A DNA stretch of 64,000 nt from Felixounavirus LF82P2. The stretch lies in the sequence record OZ035741.1; one strand, written 5' to 3'. Positions 35,057 through 61,318 of the stretch are shown one piece after another. Made by a program: the position numbers and the translations under genes. Under the pieces are notes generated by a model. That model saw only the letters and a program-made list of their open reading frames with translations, ran no database searches and was not told the origin of the DNA. Position 1 is the stretch's first letter; every line of letters starts with the position of its first letter.

Positions 35057-37423
35057 ATGCGCATGGTAAATGACCACGCAGAAGTGATTAAGAGTTCAAC
35101 TTCTTTAGAGACGTCTCAAGCACAGATTACAATGACACCTGAGATGTTCAGCCTTTTGAGTTCTGGTGTATATACCTTTAAAGAAAGGGCAGTGATTCGT
35201 GAACTGTCATGTAACGCAGTAGATGCTCAGAAAGAAGCTGGAAAAGAGAACATCCCATTCCATGTGCATTTACCTACTCGTTTTGAGCCTTACTTCGAAG
35301 TTCGTGATTTTGGAACTGGATTGACTCATGATAAAGTTATGAGTTTGTACCTAAACTATGGAGCTTCTACGAAGAATGACTCTAATGACTACATTGGTGC
35401 AATGGGTATCGGCTCAAAGTCACCATTTGCAATTGCTCAGTCATTCACAGTATCTAGTTATGTTGACGGTGTTGTTAATAAGTACTCTGTTTATCTTGAG
35501 AATGGTATCCCTCAAGTAACTAAGCTGACAACTAACCAAACAAAAGAACCTAATGGTTTAGCTGTACGTGTGGCAGTTGCTGACCACCGTATCTCAAAGT
35601 TCTTTGAAGAAGCTGGGAATGTGTACTCATACTTCACTGTAAAACCAGAAAGTAATATTGAGTACGACGATGTATTAGCAGATATGAACGTAATTGCCCG
35701 TGAAGAAGGTGTTTATGATGCCATGATTCATAAGCACAGCTGGCGTTCTAGTGATAACAGGACAGAGTTTAATGTGGTGATGGGTAACATTGCCTATCCA
35801 GTGAACATGGAAGCGTTACTTGGTGATGATTTCTTCAAAGTCTTGCCAGAGTTTTTCCGTAGGAGCGTAGACCTTGTAAACATCTACATGCCTATTGGTT
35901 CAGTTGCTATTGCAGCTTCTCGTGAAGCATTGCAGATGAATGACACGACAAAAAATGTTATCATTGAGGCTACTAAAAAGATAACTGAAGCAATTACAAA
36001 GGATGTTATCAAAAAGATTAACAATCAGCCCACACTCATGGATGCTGCACAGGCTTATGCTGAGTTGCGTTTGAACTCACGAGAAATGTTTAATGCTGTG
36101 TGTCCAAAGCTAGAGTGGGGAGGCGTTAAGCTTGATTCTCTGGAAGAAGAGTTGCTAAACATTCGTCGCGGGATTATCTACGCAGAAGACGGCTCAGTCA
36201 TTTATGAACGTGACGGTAAAGGTAACATTAAGGTTGATAGGAACGGAAACAACATCCCTAAAGTAGATTACCTTTATGACCCAGTTGCTTATGTCAAGTT
36301 CAACTCTTTAGAGAGTAAGATTCGTGCAACAGCACTTTCCTACACTCAAGAGGCAAGTATGTTCAATATCTTTGGTGCAATGCGTAAAAGCCAAATTGAA
36401 CAGTTTTTGTTTGTTATAAATGACCGTCGCAATAAAAATGGTACTGAGAAGACTGTAGGACGCAATCAAATCTTGCGTGGTGCATGTCGAGACTATGCCA
36501 GTGAGTCTAGTCTGTTTCACAGATACAATGGTATTGTCTTTGTATTCTCAACTGAAAAAGAGTTAGATGACCTAATCAATCTACACAAACTTGATAAAAG
36601 CTTGTTAAAGATTGTGAAGATGTCTGATAAGGAACACCATTATCAGCGTAAAGAAGCTGTAAGAGGTGTTGTAAAACTCTGGAAAGCTGTTCCAGCAGAA
36701 GGTGTAGCTTCCTATAAAGAGGTTTCAGAGGACTTTGATACAATTGAAGAACCCCAGCTTTACATTAAGGCAATTGGTGACACAGTTGATGGTGAATGTT
36801 TTTGCTCATCCCCAGAAGATGTAGCTAAGTCAGTTGCTAATGTTATTGGAAAGACAGTCTATGTTTTCCGAAAAGCAAATTGGAAAAAGATACCAGAAGA
36901 CTGGATTGAAGTAGATGAGAAACTCTTGAACGATAGCTTAACTGATGTTCATTGGATTAATCATAACAGGTATATGACACGTATCTATATGAATGGTGTC
37001 CTTGACCTTACAAGCAGTTGGATTATTGCCAGAAACTTTACGTTCAATAACAGGAAGATTTCTCGTGGCTATTGCTATTCACGGGATACAAACAAAACTA
37101 TCTTCCTAGAAGGTAATGAAGAGGCTGTAGAGGCAATGTTTGGTAAAATCCAGTATGTTGCTGCACCATTTGCATACACTTACACTATTAGTGTGTTGAA
37201 AACTTTGAAAGATTGTCTTGACAACGATACAAAGCTTTACAAGAAAATTAAGAAAGCTGGTGACCGTATGGTTATTAAGGTGACAAACTACCTTTCAAAA
37301 AGAAAACAAGAAAACTTCTTGCTTTCCCATTTAGATTGGAATAAAGTGTCACCCATCGAAGTGAGTAAGTTCTTAGGTTTTGATGTGAAGTGTGTTCCAG
37401 AAGGAACTACAGTTTACGATTAA
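35057..37423 (+). CDS. rIIA-like protein (GHKL-type ATPase fold at N-terminus)
   Basis: 788 aa; N-box-like RELSCNAVDA and G1-like VRDFGTGL; followed by rIIB-like gene. Confidence 0.5.
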   Translation: MRMVNDHAEVIKSSTSLETSQAQITMTPEMFSLLSSGVYTFKERAVIRELSCNAVDAQKEAGKENIPFHVHLPTRFEPYFEVRDFGTGLTHDKVMSLYLNYGASTKNDSNDYIGAMGIGSKSPFAIAQSFTVSSYVDGVVNKYSVYLENGIPQVTKLTTNQTKEPNGLAVRVAVADHRISKFFEEAGNVYSYFTVKPESNIEYDDVLADMNVIAREEGVYDAMIHKHSWRSSDNRTEFNVVMGNIAYPVNMEALLGDDFFKVLPEFFRRSVDLVNIYMPIGSVAIAASREALQMNDTTKNVIIEATKKITEAITKDVIKKINNQPTLMDAAQAYAELRLNSREMFNAVCPKLEWGGVKLDSLEEELLNIRRGIIYAEDGSVIYERDGKGNIKVDRNGNNIPKVDYLYDPVAYVKFNSLESKIRATALSYTQEASMFNIFGAMRKSQIEQFLFVINDRRNKNGTEKTVGRNQILRGACRDYASESSLFHRYNGIVFVFSTEKELDDLINLHKLDKSLLKIVKMSDKEHHYQRKEAVRGVVKLWKAVPAEGVASYKEVSEDFDTIEEPQLYIKAIGDTVDGECFCSSPEDVAKSVANVIGKTVYVFRKANWKKIPEDWIEVDEKLLNDSLTDVHWINHNRYMTRIYMNGVLDLTSSWIIARNFTFNNRKISRGYCYSRDTNKTIFLEGNEEAVEAMFGKIQYVAAPFAYTYTISVLKTLKDCLDNDTKLYKKIKKAGDRMVIKVTNYLSKRKQENFLLSHLDWNKVSPIEVSKFLGFDVKCVPEGTTVYD

Positions 37424-37502
37424 AGTGTTTGACAAGGGGCTTCAAAGCCCCTTAGAATAACCTCACAAAATGATTTATTAACTAACAAGAGAGAGTAATA
37501 AG

Positions 37503-38612
37503 ATGACTACTAAAACTAAAGCACAGATTGACGCAGAAATTTACAAACTGGTTAAAGAAGGTAAGCTGACTAAAACAGCTATTGCACAGAGATTTAATAC
37601 TTCAACCCGTTCAGTTGGTCGTGCTGTAGAGCGTCATGAAGCAACTTTAAAAGGGGATAAGAAGGCAACTTCTACACCAGCTACGAAGACTTTGAAGCAA
37701 GTTGCTAAGACATTTAAAAAGAAAGCTGACAAACCAGTTGAAAAGGTCGTTAAAGATGCTGTACAGAAAGCTCCAGTAAATAAACTGCATGAAGCTATGC
37801 AGAAAGATGACAAAATTGAGTACATGATTACTGGCGACTCTGTAATTATGACTTATGGTTCAGAATCTGAAATTGTTGAGTCTACTCATCCGAACTATCA
37901 AGAGATTGTAGTTCATGTTGTGAAAGGTGAGTTCAAGAAAGCCTTTGAACTGATGAATATTCGTAAGTCTATCGAAAACTTCACTCAGGGTGCTATCACA
38001 ATCAAAGGTGACAAGCTATTCTACGGTGCTGTTGAGATGCGTTCTACTCTGGTTGACCGTATTCTTCACATGATGAAGACTGGAGATAAAGGCTTTGAAC
38101 GCCTTGTGATGTTCTTCGAAAAACTGATGGAAAACCCATCTAAAGACTCTGTAGAACAACTTTGGGGCTTTGTATCTCACCTTGATGTTGAAATTGATGA
38201 AGAAGGCTACATCATTGGTTGGAAGAAAGTATCTACTCGTGAAGGTAAGCTGGTTGACTCCCACACCTACAAAGTTCCTAACGATTTGGGTAACATTGTA
38301 GAGATGCCACGTTGGATGGTTGATAATAACCGTAACGTGACTTGCTCTCAAGGTCTTCATGTTGGTGCTTGGGATTATGTTCGTAGCTTCTCAGGTGATA
38401 CAATCCTGAAAGTTCGTGTCCACCCACGAGATGTTGTATCTGTTCCAACTGATTACAATGATATGAAAATGCGTTCATCACGTTATGAAGTTGCAGCTAT
38501 CGTTGATAGCCAGCGTAATGTTCTGAAAGCATGGGATGGCAAGACTGAAGCTCTACATGTTATCGTTGGTACTGCTGGCGAACTTATTTCTCAGCGTAAA
38601 CGTGAAATCTAA
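37503..38612 (+). CDS. rIIB-like protein (putative)
   Basis: 369 aa immediately downstream of rIIA-like gene; assignment by synteny only. Confidence 0.3.
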   Translation: MTTKTKAQIDAEIYKLVKEGKLTKTAIAQRFNTSTRSVGRAVERHEATLKGDKKATSTPATKTLKQVAKTFKKKADKPVEKVVKDAVQKAPVNKLHEAMQKDDKIEYMITGDSVIMTYGSESEIVESTHPNYQEIVVHVVKGEFKKAFELMNIRKSIENFTQGAITIKGDKLFYGAVEMRSTLVDRILHMMKTGDKGFERLVMFFEKLMENPSKDSVEQLWGFVSHLDVEIDEEGYIIGWKKVSTREGKLVDSHTYKVPNDLGNIVEMPRWMVDNNRNVTCSQGLHVGAWDYVRSFSGDTILKVRVHPRDVVSVPTDYNDMKMRSSRYEVAAIVDSQRNVLKAWDGKTEALHVIVGTAGELISQRKREI

Positions 38613-41963: not shown

Positions 41964-42749
41964 ATGGGTATTGTAAAAATCATCAATGGTGATATCTTTG
42001 CTGCATTTGATAAAGGTAAGTTTGACATCATTGGTCATGGTTGTAACTGCATGAACCTAATGGGCGCAGGTATCGCTGACAAGATTTCTAAACTTTACCC
42101 AAAAGCATATGAGACCGATACAGAAGTTTATCTCTATGCAGGTGGTATAGGTCACAAACCCTGTGAGAATTTACTAGGTAATTTCTCTGTAGCACGCTTA
42201 AAACAAGGTCGTATAGCTAACCTTTACACTCAGCTTAAGACTGGTAAAGATGCCCGATACAGTGCTTTAGAGTCATCTTTGAAACAGCTTAACAGATACT
42301 GTGAAGTTAATCAGTTGAAGAAAGTTGGTTTACCTATGATTGGTGCAGGTATCGGTGGACTTGACCCTCAAGCCATCACAGTTATCATCAATCAGGTGAT
42401 GAAGAGTGTAGATGTTTATCTGTATGTCTATGAAGGCGAGATGTACCACAAGTTACGCTCAGGTTGGAAGAACTACTGTGAACCAGAATACTTTGCAGGT
42501 GTAGCAGTGTTCACAGATAACGCAGTTACCCTCTTCAGACGAAGAAAAGGTAAGATACATCAAAGTAACCCTCCGGTTGAAAAGATGTCTCTAAGTAACG
42601 CTCTAGTTACCCACCTGTCAAAGAGCAATCACAGAATTGCTGTAACATTTGGTAGTGATGCAGAAGCTTATATCTATGCAAGAACTGATGAGGATATCGA
42701 GGCAATCTTCTCTTCACCAGAAGTTACCTTCTTAGACGCAAAGAACTAA
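41964..42749 (+). CDS. macro-domain protein (ADP-ribose binding/processing)
   Basis: N-terminal IINGDIF..GHGCNCMNLMGAGIA resembles macro-domain core. Confidence 0.45.
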   Translation: MGIVKIINGDIFAAFDKGKFDIIGHGCNCMNLMGAGIADKISKLYPKAYETDTEVYLYAGGIGHKPCENLLGNFSVARLKQGRIANLYTQLKTGKDARYSALESSLKQLNRYCEVNQLKKVGLPMIGAGIGGLDPQAITVIINQVMKSVDVYLYVYEGEMYHKLRSGWKNYCEPEYFAGVAVFTDNAVTLFRRRKGKIHQSNPPVEKMSLSNALVTHLSKSNHRIAVTFGSDAEAYIYARTDEDIEAIFSSPEVTFLDAKN

Positions 42750-42817
42750 GAAACTCTGTAGGATATTCACAATAGCCTAAGCCTTTCTTATCTGGTAAAT
42801 TTTTCAGGTAAGGAGGG

Positions 42818-43000
42818 CTTTTTCATTTTAGAATTGTGCAGGTAGAGTTCTGTAGAGAAATCTGTAGAGAGAATTTTGAACTCCAAAGAGAAAATTCATT
42901 TTCAAACTGTGCAGGTAATCTCCAAAGAGCTTTTTCATTTTCAAAACGTGCAGACCCCGCTCAGGTCGGGCAAGAAAAATCATTTTAGAATTGTGCAGGT
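42818..43000. repeat. four direct repeats of ~25 bp (TTTTCATTTTAGAATTGTGCAGGTA consensus)
   Basis: Copies at about 42818, 42893, 42931, 42975, irregular spacing; followed by C-rich tract 43021-43056. Confidence 0.6.
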
Positions 43001-43179
43001 AGGTTTTTATAGACAGCCAGCCCAACCCCTCTCCCCCTCTTACTCCCCCTCTCCCCAAAAGTCAAGAGAAAAATTTGTAGCGGATTGAAAAATAATTCTT
43101 GATTTGCGTTCTGTTTTGTGGTAGTCGTGCGCACCCGTTTCATTACAGTTTTGCCAAAAATATTTTTAAAATTTTTATT

Positions 43180-43208
43180 GACTCTTTGAACGTGGTTATC
43201 TAATATTT
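43180..43208 (+). promoter_or_regulatory. sigma70-like promoter (TTGACT-17-TAATAT)
   Basis: Immediately upstream of conserved leader hairpin. Confidence 0.45.
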
Positions 43209-43210
43209 AC

Positions 43211-43269
43211 ATCAACGGGGAGGGAATGACCTTCCCCACTAAATAAAATCCTAAACTGGAGATTCAAAA
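43211..43269 (+). promoter_or_regulatory. conserved leader module type A (hairpin + RBS)
   Basis: CATCAACGGGGAGGGAATGACCTTCCCCACTAAATAAA..CCTAAACTGGAGATTCAAAAATG; near-identical copies end at 44259, 45525, 45855. Confidence 0.6.
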
Positions 43270-43458
43270 ATGGCATCAAGAAAAATTAAAGTTGGCGATG
43301 AGGTTAACATTAAGCACGAATACTCTTACAAAATGCTAACTATACGCTCTTATAAGGTTTATCAGGTGGAAGCTATCCACAAAGATAATACTTTTTCCTT
43401 AAAAGGGTATAGCGAACGTTTCCCTGCTGAACTCTTTGAGAAATGGAGCGCGAAATAA
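43270..43458 (+). CDS. hypothetical small protein (cassette ORF)
   Basis: Starts right after type A leader. Confidence 0.45.
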   Translation: MASRKIKVGDEVNIKHEYSYKMLTIRSYKVYQVEAIHKDNTFSLKGYSERFPAELFEKWSAK

Positions 43459-43664
43459 TGCTTTACAGTCGCGAATTGATGGTTACAACTAACGTTAACA
43501 CAAAGGCAAAACGTTTTTACATGCAAATCTGTGGCGTATGGTCCAGAATATCAGAAGCTGACTATTGCAACTATGTAGAAACAGCTATAAACTCTAATTG
43601 CTACCTTACAAGAAATACTAAAAAATTTACGAGACAGACAGCAATTTACTACTACGATAAATAA
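43443..43664 (+). CDS. hypothetical small protein
   Basis: 73 aa ORF overlapping previous stop. Confidence 0.35.
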   Translation: MEREIMLYSRELMVTTNVNTKAKRFYMQICGVWSRISEADYCNYVETAINSNCYLTRNTKKFTRQTAIYYYDK

Positions 43665-43666
43665 AA

Positions 43667-43753
43667 AGTACTTTACAAGGGGCTTATAGTTCGATAAAGT
43701 AAGCCCCAGATAAAGAGCTTTACCACTCAATCCTAAATTGGAGAACTTAAAAA
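43667..43753 (+). promoter_or_regulatory. conserved leader module type B (terminator-like hairpin + RBS)
   Basis: AGTACTTTACAAGGGGCTT..AAGCCCCAGATAAAGAGCTTTACCACTCAATCCTAAATTGGAGA..ATG; second copy 44508-44593. Confidence 0.55.
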
Positions 43754-44158
43754 ATGGCTATTAATAACCGTGAATTATCAACCTTAAAAGCACGTTTGAC
43801 CGTTAATCGAATCAACATTATGACATCATCAGCGCCTGATGAGACATTGCACAACATTATCGGAAAGATTCAAAGCGTTATTTTAGACGTTGAAAACGTA
43901 AAAAATTCATTGGCTGACGTTGCAGCAGGTATCACGCTAGACGGTGCGCAATATGAAATGTCCGACATGTTAGGCAAATCTAAGGTAATGAATAAAGAGT
44001 TAGATTTGAAAATGTTCCGATTTGCTGTTAAAGTGTGGCTATCTGTCGAGTATGATGCTAACTTTGCAATCGCTGACTTTTTCGCCACTTGGTTGCAGCG
44101 TAATTTGACTAATCATGACTTCCGTAATATCTGTGATGCAATTTATGCAGAACTTTAA
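43754..44158 (+). CDS. hypothetical protein (cassette ORF)
   Basis: Preceded by type B leader. Confidence 0.45.
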   Translation: MAINNRELSTLKARLTVNRINIMTSSAPDETLHNIIGKIQSVILDVENVKNSLADVAAGITLDGAQYEMSDMLGKSKVMNKELDLKMFRFAVKVWLSVEYDANFAIADFFATWLQRNLTNHDFRNICDAIYAEL

Positions 44159-44166
44159 AAAATTTT

Positions 44167-44259
44167 GTTGACACTGATTTTTAGATAGGTTAAATTACAC
44201 ATCAACGGGGAGGGAATGACCTTCCCCACTAAATAAAGTCCTAAACTGGAGATTCTAAA
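44167..44259 (+). promoter_or_regulatory. promoter (TTGACA-17-TAAATT) plus leader module type A
   Basis: Hairpin GGGGAGGGAATGACCTTCCCC at 44207-44227; GGAG RBS. Confidence 0.55.
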
Positions 44260-44508
44260 ATGATGAATTTTTTAAATATCCCTGATACTTGCCGACTGTT
44301 GACGCAACCAGAAAATTTAGGCAAACCTTTCCTGTACCATATGCCAGACAATACACCAAAAACATATAGCTACACGGTTAACCGCTTTACGGGTTACGCT
44401 GCAAAAAACGGTTACAAGGTTACTACTCAAAAAGTAACACTATTTACAAATATCGAAGAGCTTCCAACAATCGCTGTAAAACTAATATTTACGAAGAAGA
44501 CGCAATAA
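44260..44508 (+). CDS. hypothetical small protein (cassette ORF)
   Basis: Preceded by type A leader. Confidence 0.45.
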   Translation: MMNFLNIPDTCRLLTQPENLGKPFLYHMPDNTPKTYSYTVNRFTGYAAKNGYKVTTQKVTLFTNIEELPTIAVKLIFTKKTQ

Positions 44509-44593
44509 AGTACTTTACAGGGGGCTTGGAAGTTGATATCTTAAGCCCCAGATAAAGAGCTTTACCACTAAATCCTAAACTGGAGATTCAAAA
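44508..44593 (+). promoter_or_regulatory. conserved leader module type B
   Basis: Hairpin GGGGCTTGGAAGTTGATATCTTAAGCCCC then AGATAAAGAGCTTTACCACTAAATCCTAAACTGGAGATTCAAAAATG. Confidence 0.55.
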
Positions 44594-45136
44594 ATGAAAT
44601 GTTTTCACGGTACTACTCAAGAAAATTTCCTCAACCTGATTAATAACGGTGATAAACCATCAGGCGCATGGAATTGTTCGGATATGGACGGCAATTTTTA
44701 CGTGTATCCAGAAAATAAAATCTATGGCGACGATGAGGAAGAAATAATCTCTGAAGGTATCCAGCAAGCTCTTGGCAATGCCACTATAACGGCAGCTTTT
44801 CAGATGAAAACTCAAAATATTGTTATCTTGGAACTTGATATTCCAGAGGATGAGTTGAATGATGATTATTCTTGTGATAATATGTCGAGCGTGGCAAGTT
44901 TTACAGAGTATTTTGATATAAGCTGGATTAAAAAGGTTTACATCACTGAATTTAATGCCATGTTTTCACCTTTTTGTCTTCCTTCATTGGATAACCCAAA
45001 TTTAAATTATCTTGATGAGTCTCTGGAGCTTCTTGCTAAAAGTGTTCAACAGTCGGACAGTATTCAGGTTTTTTGTGACATCATGGATACACTAACAGGA
45101 AACATCACAGAAGAAGATTTAAAGAGCTTTTTCTAA
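44594..45136 (+). CDS. hypothetical protein (cassette ORF)
   Basis: Preceded by type B leader; 180 aa. Confidence 0.45.
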   Translation: MKCFHGTTQENFLNLINNGDKPSGAWNCSDMDGNFYVYPENKIYGDDEEEIISEGIQQALGNATITAAFQMKTQNIVILELDIPEDELNDDYSCDNMSSVASFTEYFDISWIKKVYITEFNAMFSPFCLPSLDNPNLNYLDESLELLAKSVQQSDSIQVFCDIMDTLTGNITEEDLKSFF

Positions 45137-45167
45137 AAACCTATGCAATCACCTTATAAACACTAAT

Positions 45168-45189
45168 CAGCCCCTCACAGGGGCTTTTA
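45168..45189 (+). terminator. rho-independent terminator
   Basis: AGCCCCTCACAGGGGCT followed by TTT; identical hairpin recurs at 46144. Confidence 0.45.
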
Positions 45190-45202
45190 GGGGGCTTAAA
45201 TC

Positions 45203-45436
45203 ATGCTAACAACCATTTATCTCATCCTCTCAATTTGTAATGGCCATTCATGTGATTTTAAAGGGCTTGAGGAGTTCACAGGAAGTAAAGAAAATGCTAT
45301 TCAAGTTTGCCAGATAGCAAGGCAAGACTACCCCGCAAGTGATGATATTCAGTGTTACTTTAAGACAGAAGATGACGACGGAATCTATTTCGATAGTGTT
45401 GATGGTCAGTATGAAATTATCATTGAAAAAGACTAG
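45203..45436 (+). CDS. hypothetical small protein
   Basis: 77 aa ORF. Confidence 0.4.
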   Translation: MLTTIYLILSICNGHSCDFKGLEEFTGSKENAIQVCQIARQDYPASDDIQCYFKTEDDDGIYFDSVDGQYEIIIEKD

Positions 45437-45460
45437 ACAAGCCTGATAAAAGTCTGTAAA

Positions 45461-45525
45461 TTGTCAATCAACGGGGAGGGAATGACCTTCCCCACTAAAT
45501 AAAGTCCTAAACTGGAGTTATCAAG
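45461..45525 (+). promoter_or_regulatory. leader module type A
   Basis: Hairpin GGGGAGGGAATGACCTTCCCC 45473-45493; GGAG RBS. Confidence 0.55.
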
Positions 45526-45789
45526 ATGGAAAACGTAGAATTAACCACACTTTTACAAATTGCAACCGACAAAGAAAACGTAGCTTTATTTCACCGCATC
45601 GAAAGTGATTTGTTCAATGGTGAAATCATCAAAGAGTCTTACGAGGTTGTTGGATTCAAAGATGGTAAAACATTTGGATTCTTTGACCTCGAAAAAGGCA
45701 ACGCTGTTACAAAATATGATGTTTTATCTTGTGAGATTCTTACAAAATACAACGAAAAAAGGCTTGCAACATACGCCAATATGCAGTAA
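45526..45789 (+). CDS. hypothetical small protein (cassette ORF)
   Basis: Preceded by type A leader. Confidence 0.45.
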   Translation: MENVELTTLLQIATDKENVALFHRIESDLFNGEIIKESYEVVGFKDGKTFGFFDLEKGNAVTKYDVLSCEILTKYNEKRLATYANMQ

Positions 45790-45796
45790 ATTACTA

Positions 45797-45855
45797 ATCA
45801 ACGGGAGGCGATAACCTCCCCACTAAATAAAACCCTTAAACTAGGAGATTCAAAA
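45797..45855 (+). promoter_or_regulatory. leader module type A (variant hairpin)
   Basis: Hairpin GGGAGGCGATAACCTCCC with compensatory changes; same downstream ACTAAATAAA..GGAGATTCAAAAATG. Confidence 0.5.
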
Positions 45856-46104
45856 ATGGCAACTATCCGCGCTACTGTTAACGAGTTCGGTTTTTCCTCT
45901 CTGGATGTTAAATTTGACATTGCAGGCACTGATAACGCCTTTGAAATGGTGAAAGGTCTTATCAGTCAGACCATCAAAGACTATAATCCTTCTGATGAGT
46001 TCTGGAAAGAAACAAAACAGGAAGTTCTCAAAGAGGGTTATTCTTATCACTATTGGGGTGAAAAAATTGTCTCTCTGTACTACGACAAAGAAGGCACTAA
46101 CTAA
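45856..46104 (+). CDS. hypothetical small protein (cassette ORF)
   Basis: Preceded by type A leader variant. Confidence 0.45.
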   Translation: MATIRATVNEFGFSSLDVKFDIAGTDNAFEMVKGLISQTIKDYNPSDEFWKETKQEVLKEGYSYHYWGEKIVSLYYDKEGTN

Positions 46105-46143
46105 ACGCCGCAGCGGGGCTAAATAGCCCCAGATACCTTTATA

Positions 46144-46167
46144 CAGCCCCTCACAGGGGCTTTTTTA
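46144..46167 (+). terminator. rho-independent terminator
   Basis: AGCCCCTCACAGGGGCT followed by TTTTTT. Confidence 0.5.
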
Positions 46168-47713
46168 CGTCTATCCAATCCTTATACAATCCCTTTCCTC
46201 ACCTTTTCAGAATCTTATCAGACCTTAAAAGCAATAACTCTATAGTCTACTCTATAGCCTTTTATCAAATCAACTTAAATATAAGCCAATAACCCCAGAA
46301 AGGGGATGGCCCACTTAAACGCTCTATAAAGCGCTATAACAACCTTATCAATCTAACTTAAGGGATTGCATTAACTCACCCTTAAAAGCTCTTTACAGGG
46401 CTTTATAGAGGCTTAAAAGAATCTTATAAGGTTATGAGCTTTATTGTCTCGTTAGTATCTTGTGAATAGTTAAACAATCCCCTTGATAGTCACTAAAAAG
46501 TATGTTATAGGGGCTATAAAGTTACTTCAAAGTTACGTAAAAGGGGCTATAAAGTTACGTAAATGCTAGCCCCCTTAACATTTTCTTAACAATTTCTTAA
46601 CAATCCCTACATAGTTATGCTTTTAAGGCACTTGTTAGCAACTTGTTAGTCCCTTGTTAAATCTCTGTTAAGACCACGTAAAAGCCTTGTAAGAGTCTTT
46701 GACATAGCCTTAAAAGCTCCTGTAAAGCCCTATAAAGAGCTATCTGTACAGTTGGGGGGATAGATACTAGGAAGAGGCTTAAAAGGGCTTATAAAGAGCT
46801 ATAGAGAGCTTTTAAGAGGTATGTTTAAGGAATCACTAAGAAAGGGAAGGGAACGATAAGAAAAGAGATAGTGACCGTGTTAATAGCTTGTTAAAAAGAT
46901 TAGACACTTGTTAGAAACTTGTTAATTATCTTAACAAAATAACTCTTAAAAATTAACTTGTTAGCTCTTGTTAGTCATCTGTTAAGAGACTATAAAGACC
47001 ATGTATCGACTGTTAAGAACTTGTTACAGCTTTGTTAGTTCTGTTAAGAGTCTGTTAAGACCTCTGAAGAGATGTTAAGAGGATGTAATAGTTGTTAAGA
47101 GATTGTTAATGATATTTTAAAATTCTGAAAAGGGGGGTGTTACAGGGATGTTAAGGGCTACCAAGCAGATATACATCTTCTACAGATATTTTTCAGTTCC
47201 TTCAGAGACCCTAAAAAATGACTTGATAGTCCTATTTTATAAAAATTTTAAGATTCTGAATAATTACCTATACAGCCTTTTAAAAATACAGGTAATAACA
47301 GGCTTATAAGATACCTTGTTAGTACCGTGTTAGACCTTGTGAGATAAGGTCTGTAAAGATATTCCTGTTAAGTTTGTTAAAACAGTCTATATAGAGGCTT
47401 AGTAGCACCTAGTGAACACCTATAGAGAGTATCATAGCTTACCTAGAGATTAAGAGGTGTATAGGAGCTTCTAAGAGGGTATAGAGAGAGGGTTAAGGTG
47501 ATTGTATAGGTTGTTAAGAAGGCTTGTTAGAGGGCTAGTTAGAAGGGTTATACAGAGGTCTATTAAGACCACTAGATAGATACTAAGATACTATATAGTA
47601 CTATATAACTATATAGAGAGTAAGATTAAGAAGGTTGTTAAGAAGGGTAGATATTTTGTTCACATATGATGGTGACCCAGAGGTTGGGACAACCGATAAA
47701 ATTTTATAAAAGT

Positions 47714-47738
47714 AAAAAGCCCCCAATTAAGGAGGCTC
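47714..47738 (-). terminator. rho-independent terminator (minus strand)
   Basis: Reverse complement GAGCCTCC..GGGGGCTTTTT downstream of minus-strand gene ending at 47749. Confidence 0.4.
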
Positions 47739-47748
47739 TTAAGATATT

Positions 47749-53389: not shown

Positions 53390-54522
53390 TATGCCTCCCC
53401 TGCTGGGTTAACAGTAACTGTTGCTGCATTAGATGTTACAGAACCACCTGCACCAGTAACTACACAGGTGTAGCTTCCTGCATCAGCAGCGGTTGCACCT
53501 TCTTTGGTGTAAGTTGCAGTAGTTGCATCGAGGATGTCTTCCTCACCTTTCTTCCACTGGTAACCTGTCGCACCTGTTGCCACAACATTCAGCGTTAAGG
53601 TATCACCTTCAGTGATTTCTTGATTGGTTGGCTGTTGAGTGATTACTGGAAGTGCATTCACAGTTACTACAGCAGCATTAGATTCCACTACACCACCTGC
53701 ACCTGTTACAACGCAAGTGTATGAACCAGCATCTGCTGGCAGCGCACCAGACTTGCTATAGGTAGCATCTGTAGCCGAAGGAATGTCAGAGCCATCTTTC
53801 TTCCACTGGTAGCCTGTTGCACCTGTTGCAGTCACTTCCAAGTTAATGCTTTCACCCTCATTGATGGTCTGGCTAGAAGGTTGCTGTGTAATCACAGGCA
53901 GTGCGTTGACAGTAACTGTTGCCGCATCTGAGGTAACACTTGTCCCAGCCTCTCCAGACACAACACAAGTATAGGAACCAGCATCAGAAGGTGCTACAGA
54001 CTGTTTTGTGTAGGTTGCAGATGTGGCGCTAGTGATATCCTCACCATTCTTTTTCCATTGATATCCAGTGGCATTAGTTGCAATAACGCTTAGGGTAAGT
54101 GTGCCACCTTCATTTACTGTTTGGTTGGTTGGTTGCTGAGTGATTGATGGTGGCTTGATAGCATCCTTCAGCTTAGCATTCAACATTGAGAATGGCTTAA
54201 CTCTTGCCAACCATTCACAATAAACTGTATCAACGTCTTTACCATTGATAATTGCATATTGTAAGTCCATGAAGAAGTCAGAAGTTCTCATTTGAGCGCC
54301 GATGCTGTAAAGCAACTCATCACTAAATGGGACTTTATAGTCGGGTTTGTAGTCAAACTTCTCAACTTCTGCAATATCAGCTTCAGGCCAATATGAACTA
54401 TAGGTAAGTGGTAAAATAGCCTCTTGATATGTTCTAAAATCATATCTCTTACCAGCCTTTACATTTGCAATGAAACCCTTCACAAACTCTTTGAAGTCTG
54501 GGTAAGTCTTTGCTTTAATCAT
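53389..54522 (-). CDS. virion-associated protein with three Ig-like repeats (putative)
   Basis: Three tandem ~90 aa repeats each containing GATGYQWKK..DAGSYTCVV (Ig-like); N-terminal domain paralogous to 54519-54890. Confidence 0.5.
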   Translation of the reverse strand: MIKAKTYPDFKEFVKGFIANVKAGKRYDFRTYQEAILPLTYSSYWPEADIAEVEKFDYKPDYKVPFSDELLYSIGAQMRTSDFFMDLQYAIINGKDVDTVYCEWLARVKPFSMLNAKLKDAIKPPSITQQPTNQTVNEGGTLTLSVIATNATGYQWKKNGEDITSATSATYTKQSVAPSDAGSYTCVVSGEAGTSVTSDAATVTVNALPVITQQPSSQTINEGESINLEVTATGATGYQWKKDGSDIPSATDATYSKSGALPADAGSYTCVVTGAGGVVESNAAVVTVNALPVITQQPTNQEITEGDTLTLNVVATGATGYQWKKGEEDILDATTATYTKEGATAADAGSYTCVVTGAGGSVTSNAATVTVNPAGEA

Positions 54523-55919: not shown

Positions 55920-56006
55920 GGCAGACCTACAGCTTTAAGTAAGATGGTACAGTAATCCATACAACAAGTCAAGAACTATTGCAAGTTAAAAAAGTTGTTG
56001 ACAAAG

Positions 56007-56040
56007 TACTTGACAAGGTGTAGGCTTATAAATACTTAGA
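56007..56040 (+). promoter_or_regulatory. candidate promoter with conserved ACTTGACAAGGTG box
   Basis: Third copy of 13-mer; in divergent intergenic region before 56148 gene. Confidence 0.4.
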
Positions 56041-58171: not shown

Positions 58172-58248
58172 AAAAGTTTATCTCTGTTTAGCTCAGCTTG
58201 GTAGAGCGTTCCGTTTGGGGCGGTAAGGCCGGAGGTTCAAGTCCTCCA
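58172..58248 (+). tRNA. tRNA-Pro (anticodon TGG)
   Basis: 7 bp acceptor stem, T-loop GGTTCAAGTCC, anticodon loop TTTGGGG, encoded CCA. Confidence 0.7.
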
Positions 58249-58265
58249 ACAGAGACCAAATTAAT

Positions 58266-58343
58266 GTTCCAGTAGACAAAATGGTATAGTCACCACTCTT
58301 TCAAAGTGGACATCTGAGGGTTCAAATCCCTTCTGGAACGCCA
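58266..58343 (+). tRNA. tRNA-Glu (anticodon TTC)
   Basis: Acceptor GTTCCAG/CTGGAAC, anticodon stem CCACT/AGTGG, loop CTTTCAA. Confidence 0.65.
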
Positions 58344-58434
58344 GTTTTGACAGAAGACCAAATACAGCAAACTTAATCTTATTCATCTGAAGGTAAATCG
58401 GACAAAGAAGAGATTTGGTCTGGTCATTAAGAAT

Positions 58435-58511
58435 TGCGGGTATAGAGAAAGGGCGTCTCACATGTCTCATTAGCATGGTATCGGCAGGTTCGACTCCTGC
58501 ACCCGCCTCCA
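58435..58511 (+). tRNA. tRNA-Met (anticodon CAT), atypical (T at position 37, mismatch at pair 1-72)
   Basis: Anticodon stem CATGT/GCATG, loop CTCATTA, T-loop GGTTCGACTCC. Confidence 0.5.
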
Positions 58512-58594
58512 AATTTACAGAAGACCGTTTACAGCAACATTTATTAAATTTTTAGCGGAAAAATTGAAAGATACGGTCTGGTAATACTAAACAT

Positions 58595-58671
58595 GGTTAG
58601 GAAGCACATAAGGTATGTGCGGTCGCCTGTTAAGCGAATGGCACAGGGTTCGAATCCCTGACTAACCGCCA
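58595..58671 (+). tRNA. tRNA-Asn (anticodon GTT)
   Basis: Anticodon loop CTGTTAA; T-loop GGGTTCGAATCCC; CCA encoded. Confidence 0.65.
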
Positions 58672-58740
58672 AATTTAGGAGAGAAGCGATTGCTCACCGA
58701 TTTGTAAGGTGCAAGTCCTTAGCCTGAATAGAAATTAAAT

Positions 58741-58828
58741 GTGTCGTTATCCCGTAGATGGTAGCGGTGGGGACTGTAAATCCCTTGTCATTGAGACTCG
58801 GTAGGTTCGACTCCTACACGGCACACCA
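58741..58828 (+). tRNA. tRNA-Tyr (anticodon GTA), long variable arm
   Basis: Acceptor GTGTCGT/ACGGCAC, anticodon stem GGGGA/TCCCT loop CTGTAAA, 88 nt. Confidence 0.7.
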
Positions 58829-58833
58829 ATAAA

Positions 58834-58911
58834 GGTTATGTAGTTTAATTTGGTTAAAATACTCCCCTGTCACGGGAGATGATGAGGGTTCAAATCCCTT
58901 CGTAACCGCCA
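58834..58911 (+). tRNA. tRNA-Asp (anticodon GTC)
   Basis: Acceptor GGTTATG/CGTAACC, anticodon stem CTCCC/GGGAG loop CTGTCAC. Confidence 0.7.
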
Positions 58912-59081
58912 ATTTTGAGAGGGCTATTTAGCCCCTCCCTTAAAGGGTTCTTACGAGTATCCTTTAAAGGAGCAGAAGACCAAATACAGCAAGTTACTTA
59001 AAATTTCAAGCCAATTTAATTTTGAAAAATTTAAAACTTGGTCTGGCTCAACAAATTTACAGAAGACCGTTTACAGCAAAA

Positions 59082-59178
59082 CTTAAACAATCTATTTCTC
59101 GGTAAAGAAAAGGCGAAGGTTCGATTCCTTCACTCGGCAGATGTCGAGTTGGTGTAATGGTAGCACTTAAGATGATAA
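59082..59178 (+). pseudogene. tRNA halves in permuted order (3' half upstream of 5' half); possible circularly permuted tRNA or rearranged pseudogene
   Basis: 3' part 59082-59139 (CTTAA, variable-arm hairpin, T-arm GAAGG-TTCGATT-CCTTC, acceptor ACTCGGC) then 5' part 59143-59178 (acceptor GTCGAGT, D-arm, TTAAG, loop ATGATAA). Confidence 0.35.
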
Positions 59179-59339
59179 ACAACGGTCTGGTAATTATCTT
59201 TGTAGATAAGTTATTAAGCTTACCTGTGAGTATGCGACCACAAAGGGTGAAAGGGTAAATTCTAGATTTAAACCCAAAAAGGCACATCGCTACAGACCTT
59301 AAGCAAGTCTGGGTAGCTTATCTACAAAGATAATTTAAT

Positions 59340-59415
59340 GGAAGTGTAGCAGAATGGTGATGCGGCAGACTTTTAATCTGACAGGCGATGGGTTCGAATC
59401 CCTCCACTTCTACCA
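59340..59415 (+). tRNA. tRNA-Lys (anticodon TTT)
   Basis: Acceptor GGAAGTG/CACTTCT, anticodon loop CTTTTAA, T-loop GGGTTCGAATCCC. Confidence 0.65.
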
Positions 59416-59419
59416 ATAT

Positions 59420-59496
59420 GGTTCAGTCGCAGATAAGGTAATGCAAGGGTCTCATAAGCCCTATGAATGTGGGTTCGAATCCCATCTGAACCTCCA
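59420..59496 (+). tRNA. tRNA-Met (anticodon CAT), GGG/CCC anticodon stem (initiator-like feature)
   Basis: Anticodon arm AGGGT-CTCATAA-GCCCT; acceptor GGTTCAG/CTGAACC fully paired. Confidence 0.65.
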
Positions 59497-59498
59497 AT

Positions 59499-59573
59499 TG
59501 TGGGTTAGCATAAATGGTAATGCAAACGGCTGATAACCGTTAGAAGAGGGTTCGATACCCTCACCTACAACCA
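59499..59573 (+). tRNA. tRNA-Ile (anticodon GAT)
   Basis: Anticodon arm AACGG-CTGATAA-CCGTT; T-loop GGGTTCGATACCC. Confidence 0.7.
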
Positions 59574-59591
59574 AGTTCAATAAAGTTGTTG

Positions 59592-59620
59592 ACATTGAGA
59601 TGTGACTACTTTATAGTAAC
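59592..59620 (+). promoter_or_regulatory. sigma70-like promoter inside tRNA cluster (TTGACA-17-TATAGT)
   Basis: Consensus -35 and good -10 in spacer after tRNA-Ile. Confidence 0.45.
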
Positions 59621-59821
59621 CTTAGTTTTCGTTGCGTAGCGTCTATTTTGCAAATTTAAAATAAATGCAAACGACAATGTTTTTCTGGCAGTAGCTTGAT
59701 AGGCTAAACACCAGTGAGGTCTTCCAATCCCTCATCAAAGAATTTGGCGTACTCGCCCACGGTATGATTAATAAGGTGGGCATCTTTAAGGGCTTTCTAA
59801 GAGAGTCTTTAAAGATAATTA

Positions 59822-59903
59822 CGGGGCGTATCTCAGCGGTCTTCTAAACCGCCGTTAACCGAGTAAGTGGAGTATGCGGGTTCGAGTCCTGCCGCCTCGA
59901 CCA
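59822..59903 (+). tRNA. atypical tRNA-like gene (possible Arg, anticodon TCT), non-canonical arm arrangement
   Basis: Acceptor CGGGGCG/CGCCTCG plus T-arm GCGGG-TTCGAGT-CCTGC and CCA; perfect hairpin GCGGT-CTTCTAA-ACCGC sits where the D-arm should be. Confidence 0.4.
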
Positions 59904-60046
59904 ATTTAGTTAGCAGATTACTTAGACGACCTAAGCGGGTCTTCCTGTAGGGAGGTGGTCTGTATCTCATGTTTTCCAGAACATGTAAATAATCTGAGAA
60001 GGGGCTTTACAGTGTTGAGATAATACGGTAAGCTTCGAATTATAGT

Positions 60047-60129
60047 ATGGGACGATGTTAAGACTCTAAGGCATGAGCAACGGCCTCCAAAACCGTTTCA
60101 AAGGGGTTCAACTCCTCCGTCCCATGCCA
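60047..60129 (+). tRNA. tRNA-Trp (anticodon CCA), enlarged D region (83 nt)
   Basis: Perfect acceptor ATGGGAC/GTCCCAT, anticodon arm ACGGC-CTCCAAA-ACCGT, T-loop GGGGTTCAACTCC. Confidence 0.5.
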
Positions 60130-60142
60130 AAGTCTTATTAGG

Positions 60143-60230
60143 GGTAGGTAGCGGCTAATGGCAGCCAAACAGTCTTGAAAACTGTTGCCACTGTAGAGAT
60201 ACGGTGAGGGTTCGACTCCTTTACTTACCG
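60143..60230 (+). tRNA. tRNA-Ser (anticodon TGA), long variable arm, CCA not encoded
   Basis: Anticodon arm ACAGT-CTTGAAA-ACTGT; long variable arm; T-loop GGGTTCGACTCC. Confidence 0.65.
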
Positions 60231-60488
60231 CCTAATAAGATTTTTAAAGCCAAGCTTCATTCGGATGTTGCTTTGGTATCCCTCGTGTATTGTCGTACAC
60301 ACTGATAAAACACCTAGTAGGTGTCACGGAGAAGAGATAATATCAAGCTCTCCAAAGGTTCTAGTCACCGGATTAAACAAGACTATGCAAAGACCTTTTA
60401 GGTCTTTTTAGAGGGCTTCTAAGGTTATTACAGCTTGTTGTGGAACCTTGTTGCTTAGGTTCTTAGAAGTTCTCTAAAAAGATTTAAT

Positions 60489-60566
60489 GGGAGATTGACG
60501 GTAATTGGTAAACCTATCTCGCTTAGAACGAGATGTTTGAGGGTTCGAATCCCTTGTCTCCTACCA
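60489..60566 (+). tRNA. tRNA-Leu (anticodon TAG) with short variable loop
   Basis: Anticodon arm TCTCG-CTTAGAA-CGAGA perfect; discriminator A; T-loop GGGTTCGAATCCC. Confidence 0.55.
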
Positions 60567-60573
60567 AATTAAT

Positions 60574-60649
60574 GCAGGTGTAGCAAAATGGTTATGCGGC
60601 TGACTCTTAATCAGTAAGACGATGGGTTCAATTCCCTCCACCTGTACCA
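60574..60649 (+). tRNA. tRNA-Lys (anticodon CTT)
   Basis: Scaffold similar to tRNA-Lys(TTT); anticodon arm GCTGA-CTCTTAA-TCAGT. Confidence 0.55.
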
Positions 60650-60655
60650 AACAAT

Positions 60656-60731
60656 GGGGTCATAGTTTATATGGTTAAAATTCGAGTTTTGCAAACTTGG
60701 GAACTGAGTTCAATTCTCAGTGACTCCACCA
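60656..60731 (+). tRNA. tRNA-Ala (anticodon TGC)
   Basis: Acceptor GGGGTCA/TGACTCC with G3-T70 wobble; anticodon loop TTTGCAA. Confidence 0.65.
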
Positions 60732-60737
60732 ATTAGT

Positions 60738-60812
60738 GCATCCATAGTTTAAACGGGAAAATTACAGTCTTCCAAACTGAGGTTGAGGGTTCGATTCCCT
60801 CTGGATGCTCCA
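60738..60812 (+). tRNA. tRNA-Gly (anticodon TCC)
   Basis: Acceptor GCATCCA/TGGATGC; anticodon arm ACAGT-CTTCCAA-ACTGA. Confidence 0.65.
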
Positions 60813-60826
60813 AATTAAGGTGTGAT

Positions 60827-61240
60827 ATGAAAATATGCAGTACTTGCAGAATACCAAAAGATGAAAGCTTATTCCATAAGAATAAGAACAAGAAAGACGG
60901 TCTTCAAAGTCAATGCAAAGATTGTGCAAGACTCCGTGATGCAAAGAGTTATCAAGCAAATGATAAAAGGAAAGAGGCTATTAAAAGCACTCGTAACTTC
61001 AAGAGAGAGCATAACAAGACTCTAGCTAGAAGGTACAAAGCTTTATGCAAATGTCATATATGTGGTGAGAAAGAACCAGTTGCACTGGATTTACACCATA
61101 CAGACCCTTCCCAGAAAGATTTGAATCCTGCATCACTTTATTCATACTCCACAAAAAGATTAAAAGATGAAATCAGAAAGTGCATTGTCTTGTGCGCTAA
61201 CTGTCACAGAAAAGTACATGCTGGTATCATAAAAGTTTAA
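60827..61240 (+). CDS. HNH endonuclease embedded in tRNA cluster
   Basis: Cys-rich N-terminus and C-terminal DLHHTD..CANCHRKVH HNH motif. Confidence 0.6.
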   Translation: MKICSTCRIPKDESLFHKNKNKKDGLQSQCKDCARLRDAKSYQANDKRKEAIKSTRNFKREHNKTLARRYKALCKCHICGEKEPVALDLHHTDPSQKDLNPASLYSYSTKRLKDEIRKCIVLCANCHRKVHAGIIKV

Positions 61241-61241
61241 T

Positions 61242-61318
61242 GCTGCTTTCGTATAATTGGCTATTACACATCCCTTGTAAGGATGGAAATGCAGGTTCGA
61301 GTCCTGTGAGCAGCACCA
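61242..61318 (+). tRNA. tRNA-Thr (anticodon TGT)
   Basis: Anticodon arm CATCC-CTTGTAA-GGATG; T-loop GGTTCGAGTCC. Confidence 0.7.

Follow-up and report, generated by a model that had tools for sequence, protein, structure and literature searches.

Between 43.2 and 46.2 kb of the Felixounavirus LF82P2 record OZ035741.1 (the 64-kb stretch analysed, called the window below) lie eight open reading frames (ORFs) of 62-180 amino acids (aa), all on the + strand and grouped into six expression units, each of which starts with a copy of one of two conserved leaders, here called type A and type B. The genome type is that of a Felix O1-like phage (Felixounavirus, Ounavirinae), and the counterpart of the array in Felix O1 itself is genes 15-23. 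To the left the array is flanked by a Macro-domain/phosphatase gene and a terminator, and to the right by a conserved non-coding stretch of ~1.5 kb. The reading developed below, which we consider probable, is that this is a hyperplastic region of accessory genes whose six units each start with a composite of promoter, hairpin and Shine-Dalgarno (SD) sequence that doubles as homology for recombination. From left to right, the leaders and the cassettes behind them are:

43178-43272, + strand: type A leader 1; -35 box TTGACT 43178-83, 17-bp spacer, -10 box TAATAT 43201-06, hairpin 43217-43237, SD GGAG 43258-61, ATG 43270
43270-43664, + strand: cassette 1; ORF f22 (62 aa, 43270-43458; phrog_15633) and ORF f11
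43458-43664, + strand: ORF f11, 68 aa; phrog_5293; translationally coupled to f22, without a leader of its own
43662-43756, + strand: type B leader 1; stop codon TAA 43662, -35 TTTACA 43672-77, -10 TAAAGT 43695-43700, upper stem-loop 43679-43707, outer arms 43665-75 and 43711-21, SD 43740-43, ATG 43754
43754-44158, + strand: cassette 2; ORF f2, 134 aa; phrog_4327
44168-44262, + strand: type A leader 2; -35 TTGACA, -10 TAAATT 44191-96, hairpin 44207-44227, SD 44248-51, ATG 44260
44260-44508, + strand: cassette 3; ORF f28, 82 aa
44506-44596, + strand: type B leader 2; -35 TTTACA 44514-19, TG-extended -10 TATCTT 44537-42, upper stem-loop 44521-44549, outer arms 44507-17 and 44553-63, SD 44582-85, ATG 44594
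44594-45436, + strand: cassette 4; ORF f0 (180 aa, 44594-45136), a terminator at 45168-45188, and ORF f1
45203-45436, + strand: ORF f1, 77 aa; after the terminator, with its own short ribosome-binding site and no leader
45434-45528, + strand: type A leader 3; -35 TAGACA (includes the f1 stop codon), -10 TAAATT 45457-62, hairpin 45473-45493, SD 45514-17, ATG 45526
45526-45789, + strand: cassette 5; ORF f20, 87 aa; phrog_7022
45764-45858, + strand: type A leader 4; -35 TTGCAA within the 3' end of f20, -10 TAAATT 45787-92 (includes the f20 stop codon), shortened hairpin 45803-45821 (GGGAGG/CCTCCC), SD variant 2 (CCTTAAACTAGGAG), ATG 45856
45856-46104, + strand: cassette 6; ORF f3, 82 aa; phrog_4559

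An earlier note on this DNA, made from the letters alone, had drawn attention to the two leader types, and their sequences, coordinates, repeat families and start codons (43270, 44260, 45526 and 45856 for type A; 43754 and 44594 for type B) are as it described them. It had also placed a leader ahead of all eight ORFs, which is right for six and wrong for those starting at 43458, which overlaps the stop codon of f22 (TAATG), and at 45203. In a repeat search type A came out as a 72-nucleotide (nt) family of four copies and type B as an 80-nt family of two, and these are not chance repeats, since a 27-nt type A core has three matches and a 21-nt type B core two where none is expected in 100 shuffles. 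Profile hidden Markov models built from many copies find the six leaders at E = 1e-22 to 1e-27 in the 64 kb, and elsewhere in it nothing comparable, only one weak separate element between rIIA- and rIIB-like genes.

The type A layout consists of an AT-rich stretch, a -35 box (TTGACT, TTGACA, TAGACA or TTGCAA), 17 bp, and a -10 box (TAATAT or TAAATT), followed by 10 nt ending in ATCAAC and then by the hairpin GGGGAGGGAAUGACCUUCCCC, of 8 bp with one G.U pair. Beyond the hairpin come ACUAAAUAAAGU, CCUAAACUGGAGAUUCAAAA and the AUG. As the hairpin starts 11 nt past the -10 box it would lie inside its own transcript, at about +4. In type B a stop codon is followed by AAAGUA, C-TTTACA (the -35 box being TTTACA), a 17-bp spacer and a -10 box of the form TAnnnT; the hairpin GGGGCUUA...UAAGCCCC occupies the promoter spacer with its 3' arm overlapping the -10 box, and around it lies an outer helix between the -35 region and +4 to +14. 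The predicted start is at the end of the 3' arm, so that RNA made from the leader's own promoter cannot form the hairpin. Downstream of it are AGAUAAAGAGCUUUACCACU and a translation-initiation module common to both types (CCACTAAAT..CCT(T)AAACT(A)GGAGATTCAAAAATG), which brings the composite leader to ~75-95 nt and places GGAG 8-10 nt upstream of the ATG in all six window leaders. Stop codons belonging to the upstream genes are 0-25 nt before the -35 box or within the promoter. Two details of the earlier description need amendment. The fourth type A copy, said to carry compensatory changes, does keep a perfect 6-bp stem (GGGAGG...CCTCCC), yet it does so without base substitutions, both arms being shortened relative to GGGGAGGG...CCTTCCCC; and for type B, where the hairpin and ribosome-binding-site leader are real, the promoter (TTTACA-N17-TAAAGT in one copy, TTTACA-N17-TATCTT in the other) had been overlooked.

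How far beyond the window does this design extend? The comparative sample comprised 12 annotated GenBank loci and 24 loci from the IMG/VR database retrieved via the 180-aa f0 protein, together with AYO145A, an Erwinia phage (Kolesnikvirus) and the complete Felix O1 genome. With nhmmer the first 13 sources gave ~65 type A and ~56 type B copies, and in 36 related genomes there are 364 leaders with a downstream ORF, every one on the coding strand and in the array; the complete Felix O1 genome has four type A and three type B copies, again in the array only. The 3.3-kb array region has matches in 253 phage records, nearly all from Felix O1-like myoviruses (Felixounavirus, Ounavirinae), the top match being 94% identical and split into seven pieces. 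Type B alone matches 287 phage records, including 29 Erwinia phages, and type A 250 records, from Felixounavirus and Moogle-like phages. The leader matches are confined to Ounavirinae records except for single Staphylococcus- and Campylobacter-named records, which were not examined, and Felixounavirus, Moogle-like phages and Kolesnikvirus have the layout in common.

Before they are anything else the leaders are transcriptional elements, to judge from their conservation, and both types are predicted promoters. Among unique type A leaders the spacer is 17 bp in 165 of 168 and the -10 box is TAAATT in 124, the two consensus boxes being matched at a mean of 4.7/6 and 4.0/6 positions. Six variants of the -35 box stand in differing coding and stop-codon contexts, all with TTG-like matches: TAGACA spans the f1 stop codon, while TTGCAA and TTGACG are within coding sequence. 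The -35 box of type B is TTTACA in 161 of 162 unique leaders, with a spacer of 17 bp in 154 and 18 bp in the other eight, and all have TAnnnT at -10, where twelve different hexamers keep T-12, A-11 and T-7 and vary in the middle three bases. An unbiased MAFFT alignment of type B has an invariant loop TA and a G at -14 that is at least 90% conserved, a pattern pointing to an extended -10 promoter (TTTACA-N17-tGnTAnnnT). The 20 nt 5' of the -35 box are 78% AT against 61% for the genome, and the leaders of the Erwinia phage have the same promoter pattern. T-12, A-11, T-7, G-14 and the spacing are conserved independently of structure, which argues that the element is at least also transcriptional.

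Some of this had been glimpsed. The Felix O1 genome paper (PMC3185647) lists a 57-bp repeat, corresponding to type B, and a 39-bp repeat, corresponding to the type A promoter, as direct repeats, and states that the promoters and temporal control of this phage are unknown (PMC3185647). The GenBank record of AYO145A has one promoter annotated, and the KhF3 record (L002, KT184315) has type A hairpins as Rho-independent terminators at 1818-1838, 2683-2703 and 4242-4262; these features lie on the strand opposite the genes and are probably an artefact of automatic prediction. The region goes unmentioned in the Felixounavirus comparative paper.

The second layer is structure. Folded as mRNA, type A leaders form a 5' hairpin with a total folding free energy (dG) of -14.6 to -19.9 and z scores of -1.8 to -3.3; for leader 1 of the window, folded from its predicted start, the values are -18.7 and -3.25. 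Type B behaves differently according to where the RNA starts. Read-through RNA has a two-helix structure of ~20 bp with a 3x3 internal loop (dG -23.4, z -2.75 for leader 1; dG -25.7, z -2.35 for leader 2), whereas RNA from the leader's own promoter is unstructured (z -0.6 and +1.0, respectively), since own transcripts do not have the 5' halves of the two helices.

That these structures have been kept by selection at the RNA level is suggested by the way their arms vary. In a stem census anchored at the hairpin base (50 unique type B hairpins), 91.7% of cells in the 9-bp upper stem are paired, against 79.1 +/- 1.0% when partners are shuffled (maximum 82.2% of 500 shuffles) and at most 57% when partners are slid. 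The pairs found at depth 5 are C-G (22), U.G (25) and U-A (3); at depth 7, U-A (36) and A-U (12); at depth 8, A-U (36) and U-A (10); and at depth 9, A-U (18), C-G (11), U-A (10) and U.G (8), so that two-sided changes are at depths 7-9. G.U pairs make up 41 of the 454 paired cells in type B, with U.G at depth 5 in half of the variants. As such pairs would be C.A mismatches on the other strand, the structures are strand-specific, which favours sense-strand RNA over a palindrome acting in duplex DNA. RNAalifold on a plain MAFFT alignment of 114 unique type B cores recovered the stem and with it the outer helix (AAGU.CUUUA/UAAAG.AGCUU), whose pairing is 99.1% against 97.7 +/- 0.2% with shuffled partners (reached in none of 500) and at most 66% with slid ones. 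A single pair of that helix covaries (G-C in 89, U-A in 13, broken in 9), and two others have G.U intermediates; a register-free census that takes in the Erwinia copies gives 98.1% against 96.2 +/- 0.2%. In Erwinia phage Rouille the upper stem is GGUG...CACC in place of GGGG/CCCC, U-A having replaced G-C at depth 3, and changes in one outer arm are matched in the other (AAAAGU/GCUUUU against AUAAAG/CUUUAU).

For type A, 84.1% of stem cells are paired against 72.8 +/- 1.1% with shuffled partners, and at least seven distinct stems stand at a constant distance from the -10 box. They include GGGGAGGG/CCTTCCCC, GGGAGG/CCTCCC, GGGGC/GCCCC, GGGC/GCCC, GGGA/TCCC and GGGGAAG/CTTCCCC, the last four being among those of divergent Moogle-like genomes. 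The expectation of the earlier note that leader copies would align from promoter through ribosome-binding site, and that the stems would covary, is thus borne out. A smaller pairing is possible downstream: a CC(U) 6 nt upstream of the SD can pair with part of it (for example at 43249-43260 and 45838-45846), such pairing being possible in 93% of the 3' modules against 33-36% of controls, and its variants keep it (UCC/GGA and CCU/AGG; in Erwinia CCUU/AAGG and CCUC/GAGG). The mini-helix has 3-4 bp, and the leader copies are homologous, so that the 93% does not stand for independent events. A search of Rfam returned only tRNAs at gathering thresholds, and in the array two chance-level hits at E up to 10.

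The third layer is recombination. Across genomes the pan-array is collinear, with cassettes present or absent. Whatever their place in it, leaders share 82-91% identity over 60-90 nt (paralogous leaders 0.82-0.86, orthologous 0.87-0.91), but the genes they separate are unrelated. The window itself has two such absences. Between two type B leaders it lacks a five-cassette block, which in the reference has seven ORFs, and between two leaders of type A it lacks two cassettes, f6 and f7 of relatives; there type A leader 3 (45434-45528) is the chimeric junction leader. When each junction leader was aligned with its two parents, taken from a relative in which the block is still present, same-type junctions proved chimeric in eight cases of eight, the 5' flank being that of the left parent, the 3' flank that of the right, and the switch point inside the shared core. 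The f11|f2 junction of the window has an identical core of 59 nt, and at f1|f20 the switch is between the -10 box and the hairpin; where an A leader has joined a B leader, it falls in the 25-30-nt SD module common to both types. Crossover intervals thus differ in position along the leader (-10 box to hairpin, loop to SD, or SD module), which speaks for homologous rather than site-specific recombination. In relatives f28 is found both before and after f18, with alleles that differ between the two orders. At one and the same cassette, close relatives may have either of the two SD-module variants (CCTAAACTGGAG or CCTTAAACTAGGAG). Of 253 records only one matches at least 80% of the array contiguously, compared with 251 of 260 for a nucleotide-metabolism control region and 233 of 257 for the region of small ORFs next to the array on its upstream side. 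The gain, loss and reordering of cassettes with breakpoints inside leaders that the earlier note proposed to look for are all there, and its modular cassette system (conserved leaders, unrelated genes between them, cassettes present or absent among relatives) stands. Concerted evolution within a genome was considered and set aside, paralogue identity being 0.824 within and 0.819 between genomes. So was duplication as the origin of the f22 and f18 cassettes: BLASTP finds no similarity between the two, and the merged cluster 'g4' that had joined them was a single-linkage artefact.

Taken together, how might such an array work? In type A, a host sigma-70-type promoter (-35, 17 bp, TAAATT) would start the transcript, and the G/C-clamped hairpin at its 5' terminus may protect early messages from decay that depends on the 5' end; stabilization of mRNA by 5'-terminal stem-loops is an established principle, ompA and T7 phi10 being the examples. 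In type B, an extended -10 promoter would give unstructured transcripts of its own, while RNA reading through from upstream would fold, the structure then attenuating transcription or being processed; neighbouring units would thereby be insulated, with a protective hairpin left at the 3' end of the upstream message. The weak anti-SD pairing may tune translation. Because the leaders are 82-91% identical everywhere while the genes between are unrelated, they serve as portable homology, with leader x leader recombination deleting, inserting and reordering cassettes among co-infecting relatives. The roles assigned to the hairpins on RNA (5' stabilizer; attenuator or processing site) and the recombination machinery are inferred, and the shared translational or RNA-processing control that the earlier note ascribed to the leaders is plausible. 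More tentatively, and with rather less than even confidence, type B may be a dual-coded insulator: the same ~60 nt would be an extended -10 promoter on DNA and, on read-through RNA alone, a two-helix structure of ~20 bp that is cleaved (e.g. by RNase III) or stops the polymerase. If so, cassettes would be separated from their neighbours both transcriptionally and post-transcriptionally.

Several observations sit uneasily with this account of composite leaders. Promoter activity and start sites are predictions from consensus and conservation only. Reverse transcription PCR of Felix O1 (PMC3185647, Table 3) places array genes 16, 20, 21 and 22 in a 5-minute class and genes 17, 19 and 23 in a 25-minute class, a timing without relation to leader type: behind type B leaders, genes 16 and 20 have their peak at 5 min and gene 17 at 25 min, and behind type A leaders genes 21 and 22 have theirs at 5 min and genes 19 and 23 at 25 min. 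On the structural side, most outer-helix columns are invariant and there the -35 box and the helix are confounded, 9-10 sequences break the single covarying pair of that helix, and a base-anchored census takes the best local hairpin and is so biased towards pairing. For type A (150 leaders aligned with MAFFT) RNAalifold keeps three G-C pairs only, since paired indels shift the register, and the base-anchored census was used instead. On the coding strand a U-tract is absent after both hairpins (CCCCACTAAAT; CCCCAGATAAAG). As to recombination, one deletion (g18|g5 in L004) is independent of leaders, homogenization within genomes is unsupported by the identity of paralogues in one genome (the 0.824 and 0.819 given above), and the IMG/VR loci had been chosen for the presence of ORF f0.

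Might the leaders instead be mainly a shared post-transcriptional control element through which a RegB-like GGAG endonuclease, a RegA-like repressor or RNase III co-regulates the cassettes, with recombination as a side effect? Conservation does reach far beyond what an SD needs, SD/anti-SD pairing is much commoner than in controls and is kept between variants, and the ~20-bp two-helix fold of type B read-through RNA resembles the RNase III sites of the T7 early region. However, no candidate regulator was identified, none having been searched for; the SD mini-helix is short and its copies are homologous, and the promoter features are conserved independently of any structure. We regard this as possible, if doubtful, as the principal explanation, and it is compatible with the composite-leader reading, not exclusive of it. 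That the hairpins are plain transcription terminators between independent genes, as the KhF3 record has it, is unlikely. In its favour are that annotation, the position of type B hairpins directly 3' of stop codons, and the finding that stem-loops of T4-like phage RB49 with similar GGGG..CCCC stems cut lacZ expression like a strong terminator (PMC2839356). Yet neither hairpin has a U-tract on the coding strand: they are followed by ACUAAAU or AGAUAAAG, which is not how an intrinsic terminator ends, so that the sequence gives termination no support. The KhF3 annotations lie on the wrong strand, a type A hairpin downstream of its own promoter would end its own message, and two canonical U-tract terminators in the same array (45168-45188 and 46144-46166) display the form that terminators take in this phage.

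The inverted repeats could also act on DNA, as operators for a dimeric repressor that turns early promoters off, or as hairpin or cruciform sites for a site-specific recombinase (as in attC-like integron cassettes). Their overlap with the -10 box (type B) or start site (type A) is indeed typical of operators, and the array consists of small cassettes with hairpin-forming repeats between them; a recombination protein that binds stem-loops has been speculated on for the T4-type elements (PMC2839356). This is very improbable all the same, in that stem sequences vary with complementarity kept, which is no fit with a fixed protein recognition sequence, the G.U pairs make the structures strand-specific, crossovers at differing positions in the leader indicate homologous recombination, every cassette has its own promoter, unlike integron cassettes, and no integrase gene was seen in the annotated neighbourhoods, where no dedicated search was run. 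Least of all is it to be expected that the leaders are neutral leftovers of recent duplication or gene conversion with a function limited to that of an ordinary promoter and ribosome-binding site. Paralogous leaders are, it is true, almost as alike as orthologous ones, and segments are exchanged between leaders. But Felixounavirus, Moogle-like phages and Kolesnikvirus share the layout, with both helices changing in a compensatory way, and variation is mostly in loops and spacers, paired and promoter positions being constrained.

The composite leaders of the array have a striking parallel in the promoter-early stem-loops (PeSLs) of the T4-like pairs RB49/phi1, PST/T4 and nt-1/KVP40, which are defined by a sigma-70-type promoter with a stem-loop of a G-run and a C-run in or beside it and fall into five positional subclasses (PMC2839356, PMC4122927). 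Their promoter and terminator activity, and mini-circles, have been shown by experiment (PMC2839356, PMC4122927), a difference from the present leaders, which are known from sequence alone. Shared between the two are -35 and -10 boxes of sigma-70 type with a 17-bp spacer (predicted here), an AT-rich upstream stretch holding the previous stop codon, an SD and ATG at the 3' end, and a GGGG...CCCC stem-loop with G.T (G.U) pairs that is placed between -35 and -10 or over -10 (type B) or downstream of -10 (type A). Both kinds of element also cluster where small ORFans make up a hyperplastic region, both have indels, replacements and displacements that separate close relatives and end within an element, and both include 'half' elements. 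The likeness to PeSLs that the earlier note had remarked on therefore extends to every feature of the published definition that sequence can address, other than occurrence in, or descent from, T4-like phages. There are differences. The phages here are Ounavirinae and the elements have no sequence homology to those of T4-type phages; they form two discrete families, highly conserved over 75-95 nt including the whole 5' untranslated region and with one common 3' module; in type A the stem-loop clearly lies within the transcript; and type B adds an outer helix that pairs the -35 region with +4 to +14. On sequence grounds we take the leaders to be functional analogues of T4-type PeSLs and not homologues, since both the host genome and the leader matches are those of Ounavirinae. 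That an unrelated, second lineage of phages has a PeSL-type system is well supported. A literature search that did not extend to subscription journals (e.g. the phiEa21-4 genome paper) found it described as such nowhere, and no paper linking PeSLs with Felix O1-type phages.

Other well-known systems come to mind. The RNase III sites R0.3-R1.3 of T7 early genes reportedly are irregular hairpins of ~20 bp (lower stem, internal loop, upper stem) between short early cistrons of a read-through transcript, as predicted for type B, and cleavage in the internal loop would similarly leave a 3' hairpin on the upstream mRNA. However, the T7 sites are not known to contain promoters, the internal loop of type B is symmetric (3x3) and its helices short, and cleavage here is purely hypothetical. 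Type A is like the 5'-terminal stabilizing stem-loops of the ompA 5' untranslated region and the T7 phi10 leader: a stable hairpin rich in G and C stands no more than ~4 nt from the 5' end, and an unstructured A/U-rich spacer, a strong SD and ATG follow, with the difference that the 5' end of type A is a prediction. Integron attC arrays also have small unrelated ORFs with hairpin-capable repeats between them and a variable cassette content; their cassettes, in contrast, are promoter-less whereas each unit here has its own (predicted) promoter, their crossover point is fixed whereas crossovers here are spread along the repeat, and the structures here are apparently selected on the sense RNA strand. 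An integrase like the tyrosine recombinase IntI of integrons was found neither in the annotated neighbourhoods nor in the Felix O1 annotation, to which the look for one was confined. Lastly, the morons of lambdoid phages reportedly are likewise autonomously expressed accessory genes inserted between others, but they are flanked by a promoter and a canonical terminator and are not known to have a common repeated leader.

Should type B be a dual-coded insulator, types A and B together would constitute a standardized 'plug-and-play' socket for expression and recombination in at least three lineages of Ounavirinae (Felixounavirus, Moogle-like, Kolesnikvirus), one that lets phages exchange host-takeover or anti-defence genes. 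The array shows that the PeSL principle is not peculiar to T4-like phages, since repeated units of promoter, stem-loop and ribosome-binding site that express small accessory genes and supply the homology to shuffle them have also arisen in an unrelated and widely used group. Felix O1 is used for Salmonella typing and biocontrol, and coliphages related to it are common. The more than 250 sequenced relatives with both leader families are a large natural data set for cassette turnover, the leaders suggest ready-made sites for engineering payload genes into Felix O1-like phages, and the promoter-within-structure design of type B offers a testable model for the insulation of densely packed early genes.

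What the cassettes carry is less plain. The leaders point to ~25 families of accessory genes with no known function, which are likely to be early host-takeover or anti-defence genes. All eight cargo proteins of the window are in PHROGs of unknown function, and a Pfam search with them gave no matches. Homologues of f0 were found only in Felix O1-like and Moogle-like phages, all annotated 'hypothetical'; its AlphaFold model is poor (predicted local distance difference test score 57) and Foldseek with that model against the PDB gave nothing below E = 0.67. A further homologue, 42% identical, lies at 2000-2479 of a 142-kb contig from a different, larger phage (L036, IMGVR_UViG_3300037962_000518), on which there are no type A or B leaders near it; therefore cargo moves, or persists, outside the leader system.

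The array is bounded and subdivided by the following:

41964-42749: Macro-domain/phosphatase gene, upstream of the array
42779-42823, + strand: intrinsic terminator that ends the upstream unit and bounds the array on the left; identical in sequence to Felix O1 terminator t13 (PMC3185647, Table 2)
45168-45188, + strand: intrinsic terminator inside the array, between f0 and f1, with a U-tract
46115-46135, + strand: truncated type-B-like hairpin GGGGCTAAATAGCCCC-AGATA, a 'half' element without promoter or ribosome-binding site, preceding the end terminator
46144-46166, + strand: intrinsic terminator closing the array, with a U-tract

Terminator prediction in the array region gave 42779, 45169 and 46145 only, that at 45169 on the - strand although the T-run is on the + strand. 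The terminators in mid-array and at the array end have an identical 21-nt core (CAGCCCCTCACAGGGGCTTTT), which makes up the first 21 nt of the latter. Folding at the array end (46115-46166) gave z -3.27, and in two relatives (L004 and L010) a type A promoter is joined to the truncated type-B-like hairpin of the array end at CGGGG.

Between the upstream terminator and the first array promoter the motif TCATTTT(A/C)RAAYYGTGCAG occurs four times (42823, 42896, 42935 and 42980), followed by a C-rich tract at 43021-43056. Erwinia phage Rouille (L038, ~3150-3330) has TTTTTCATTTTnnAnnTGTGCAT four times and a C-rich tract in the same arrangement, which is thus kept across genera; the repeats could be regulator-binding sites or iterons. 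On the other side, the ~1.5-kb non-coding region (46180-47740) separates the + strand array from - strand genes. It is kept in 194 of 255 relatives and is rich in short repeats, among them one of 33 nt in tandem at 46496-46561. In some GenBank records it has 'repeat_region' features, and it may hold an origin or the genome termini.

The weak separate element mentioned above, at 37429-37458, is a single copy of the same design, with TTGACA, an 18-nt spacer holding the hairpin GGGGCTTCAAAGCCCC, and TAGAAT. It stands between the rIIA-like gene (35057-37423) and the rIIB-like gene (37503-38612), and is also present in Felix O1, at 2298. Elsewhere in the window a cluster of 24 tRNA genes (58182-63582) is usual for Felix O1-like phages, and three 37-nt repeats at 53404-53938, spaced by exactly 249 nt, suggest an internally repeated domain in a gene. 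A 35-nt motif, TAAAAAG..GTTGACAA.G.ACTTGACAAGGTGT, is present three times (11592-11626, 37715-37749 and 55987-56021), each copy with two TTGACA-like boxes and at least one of the three inside a coding region.

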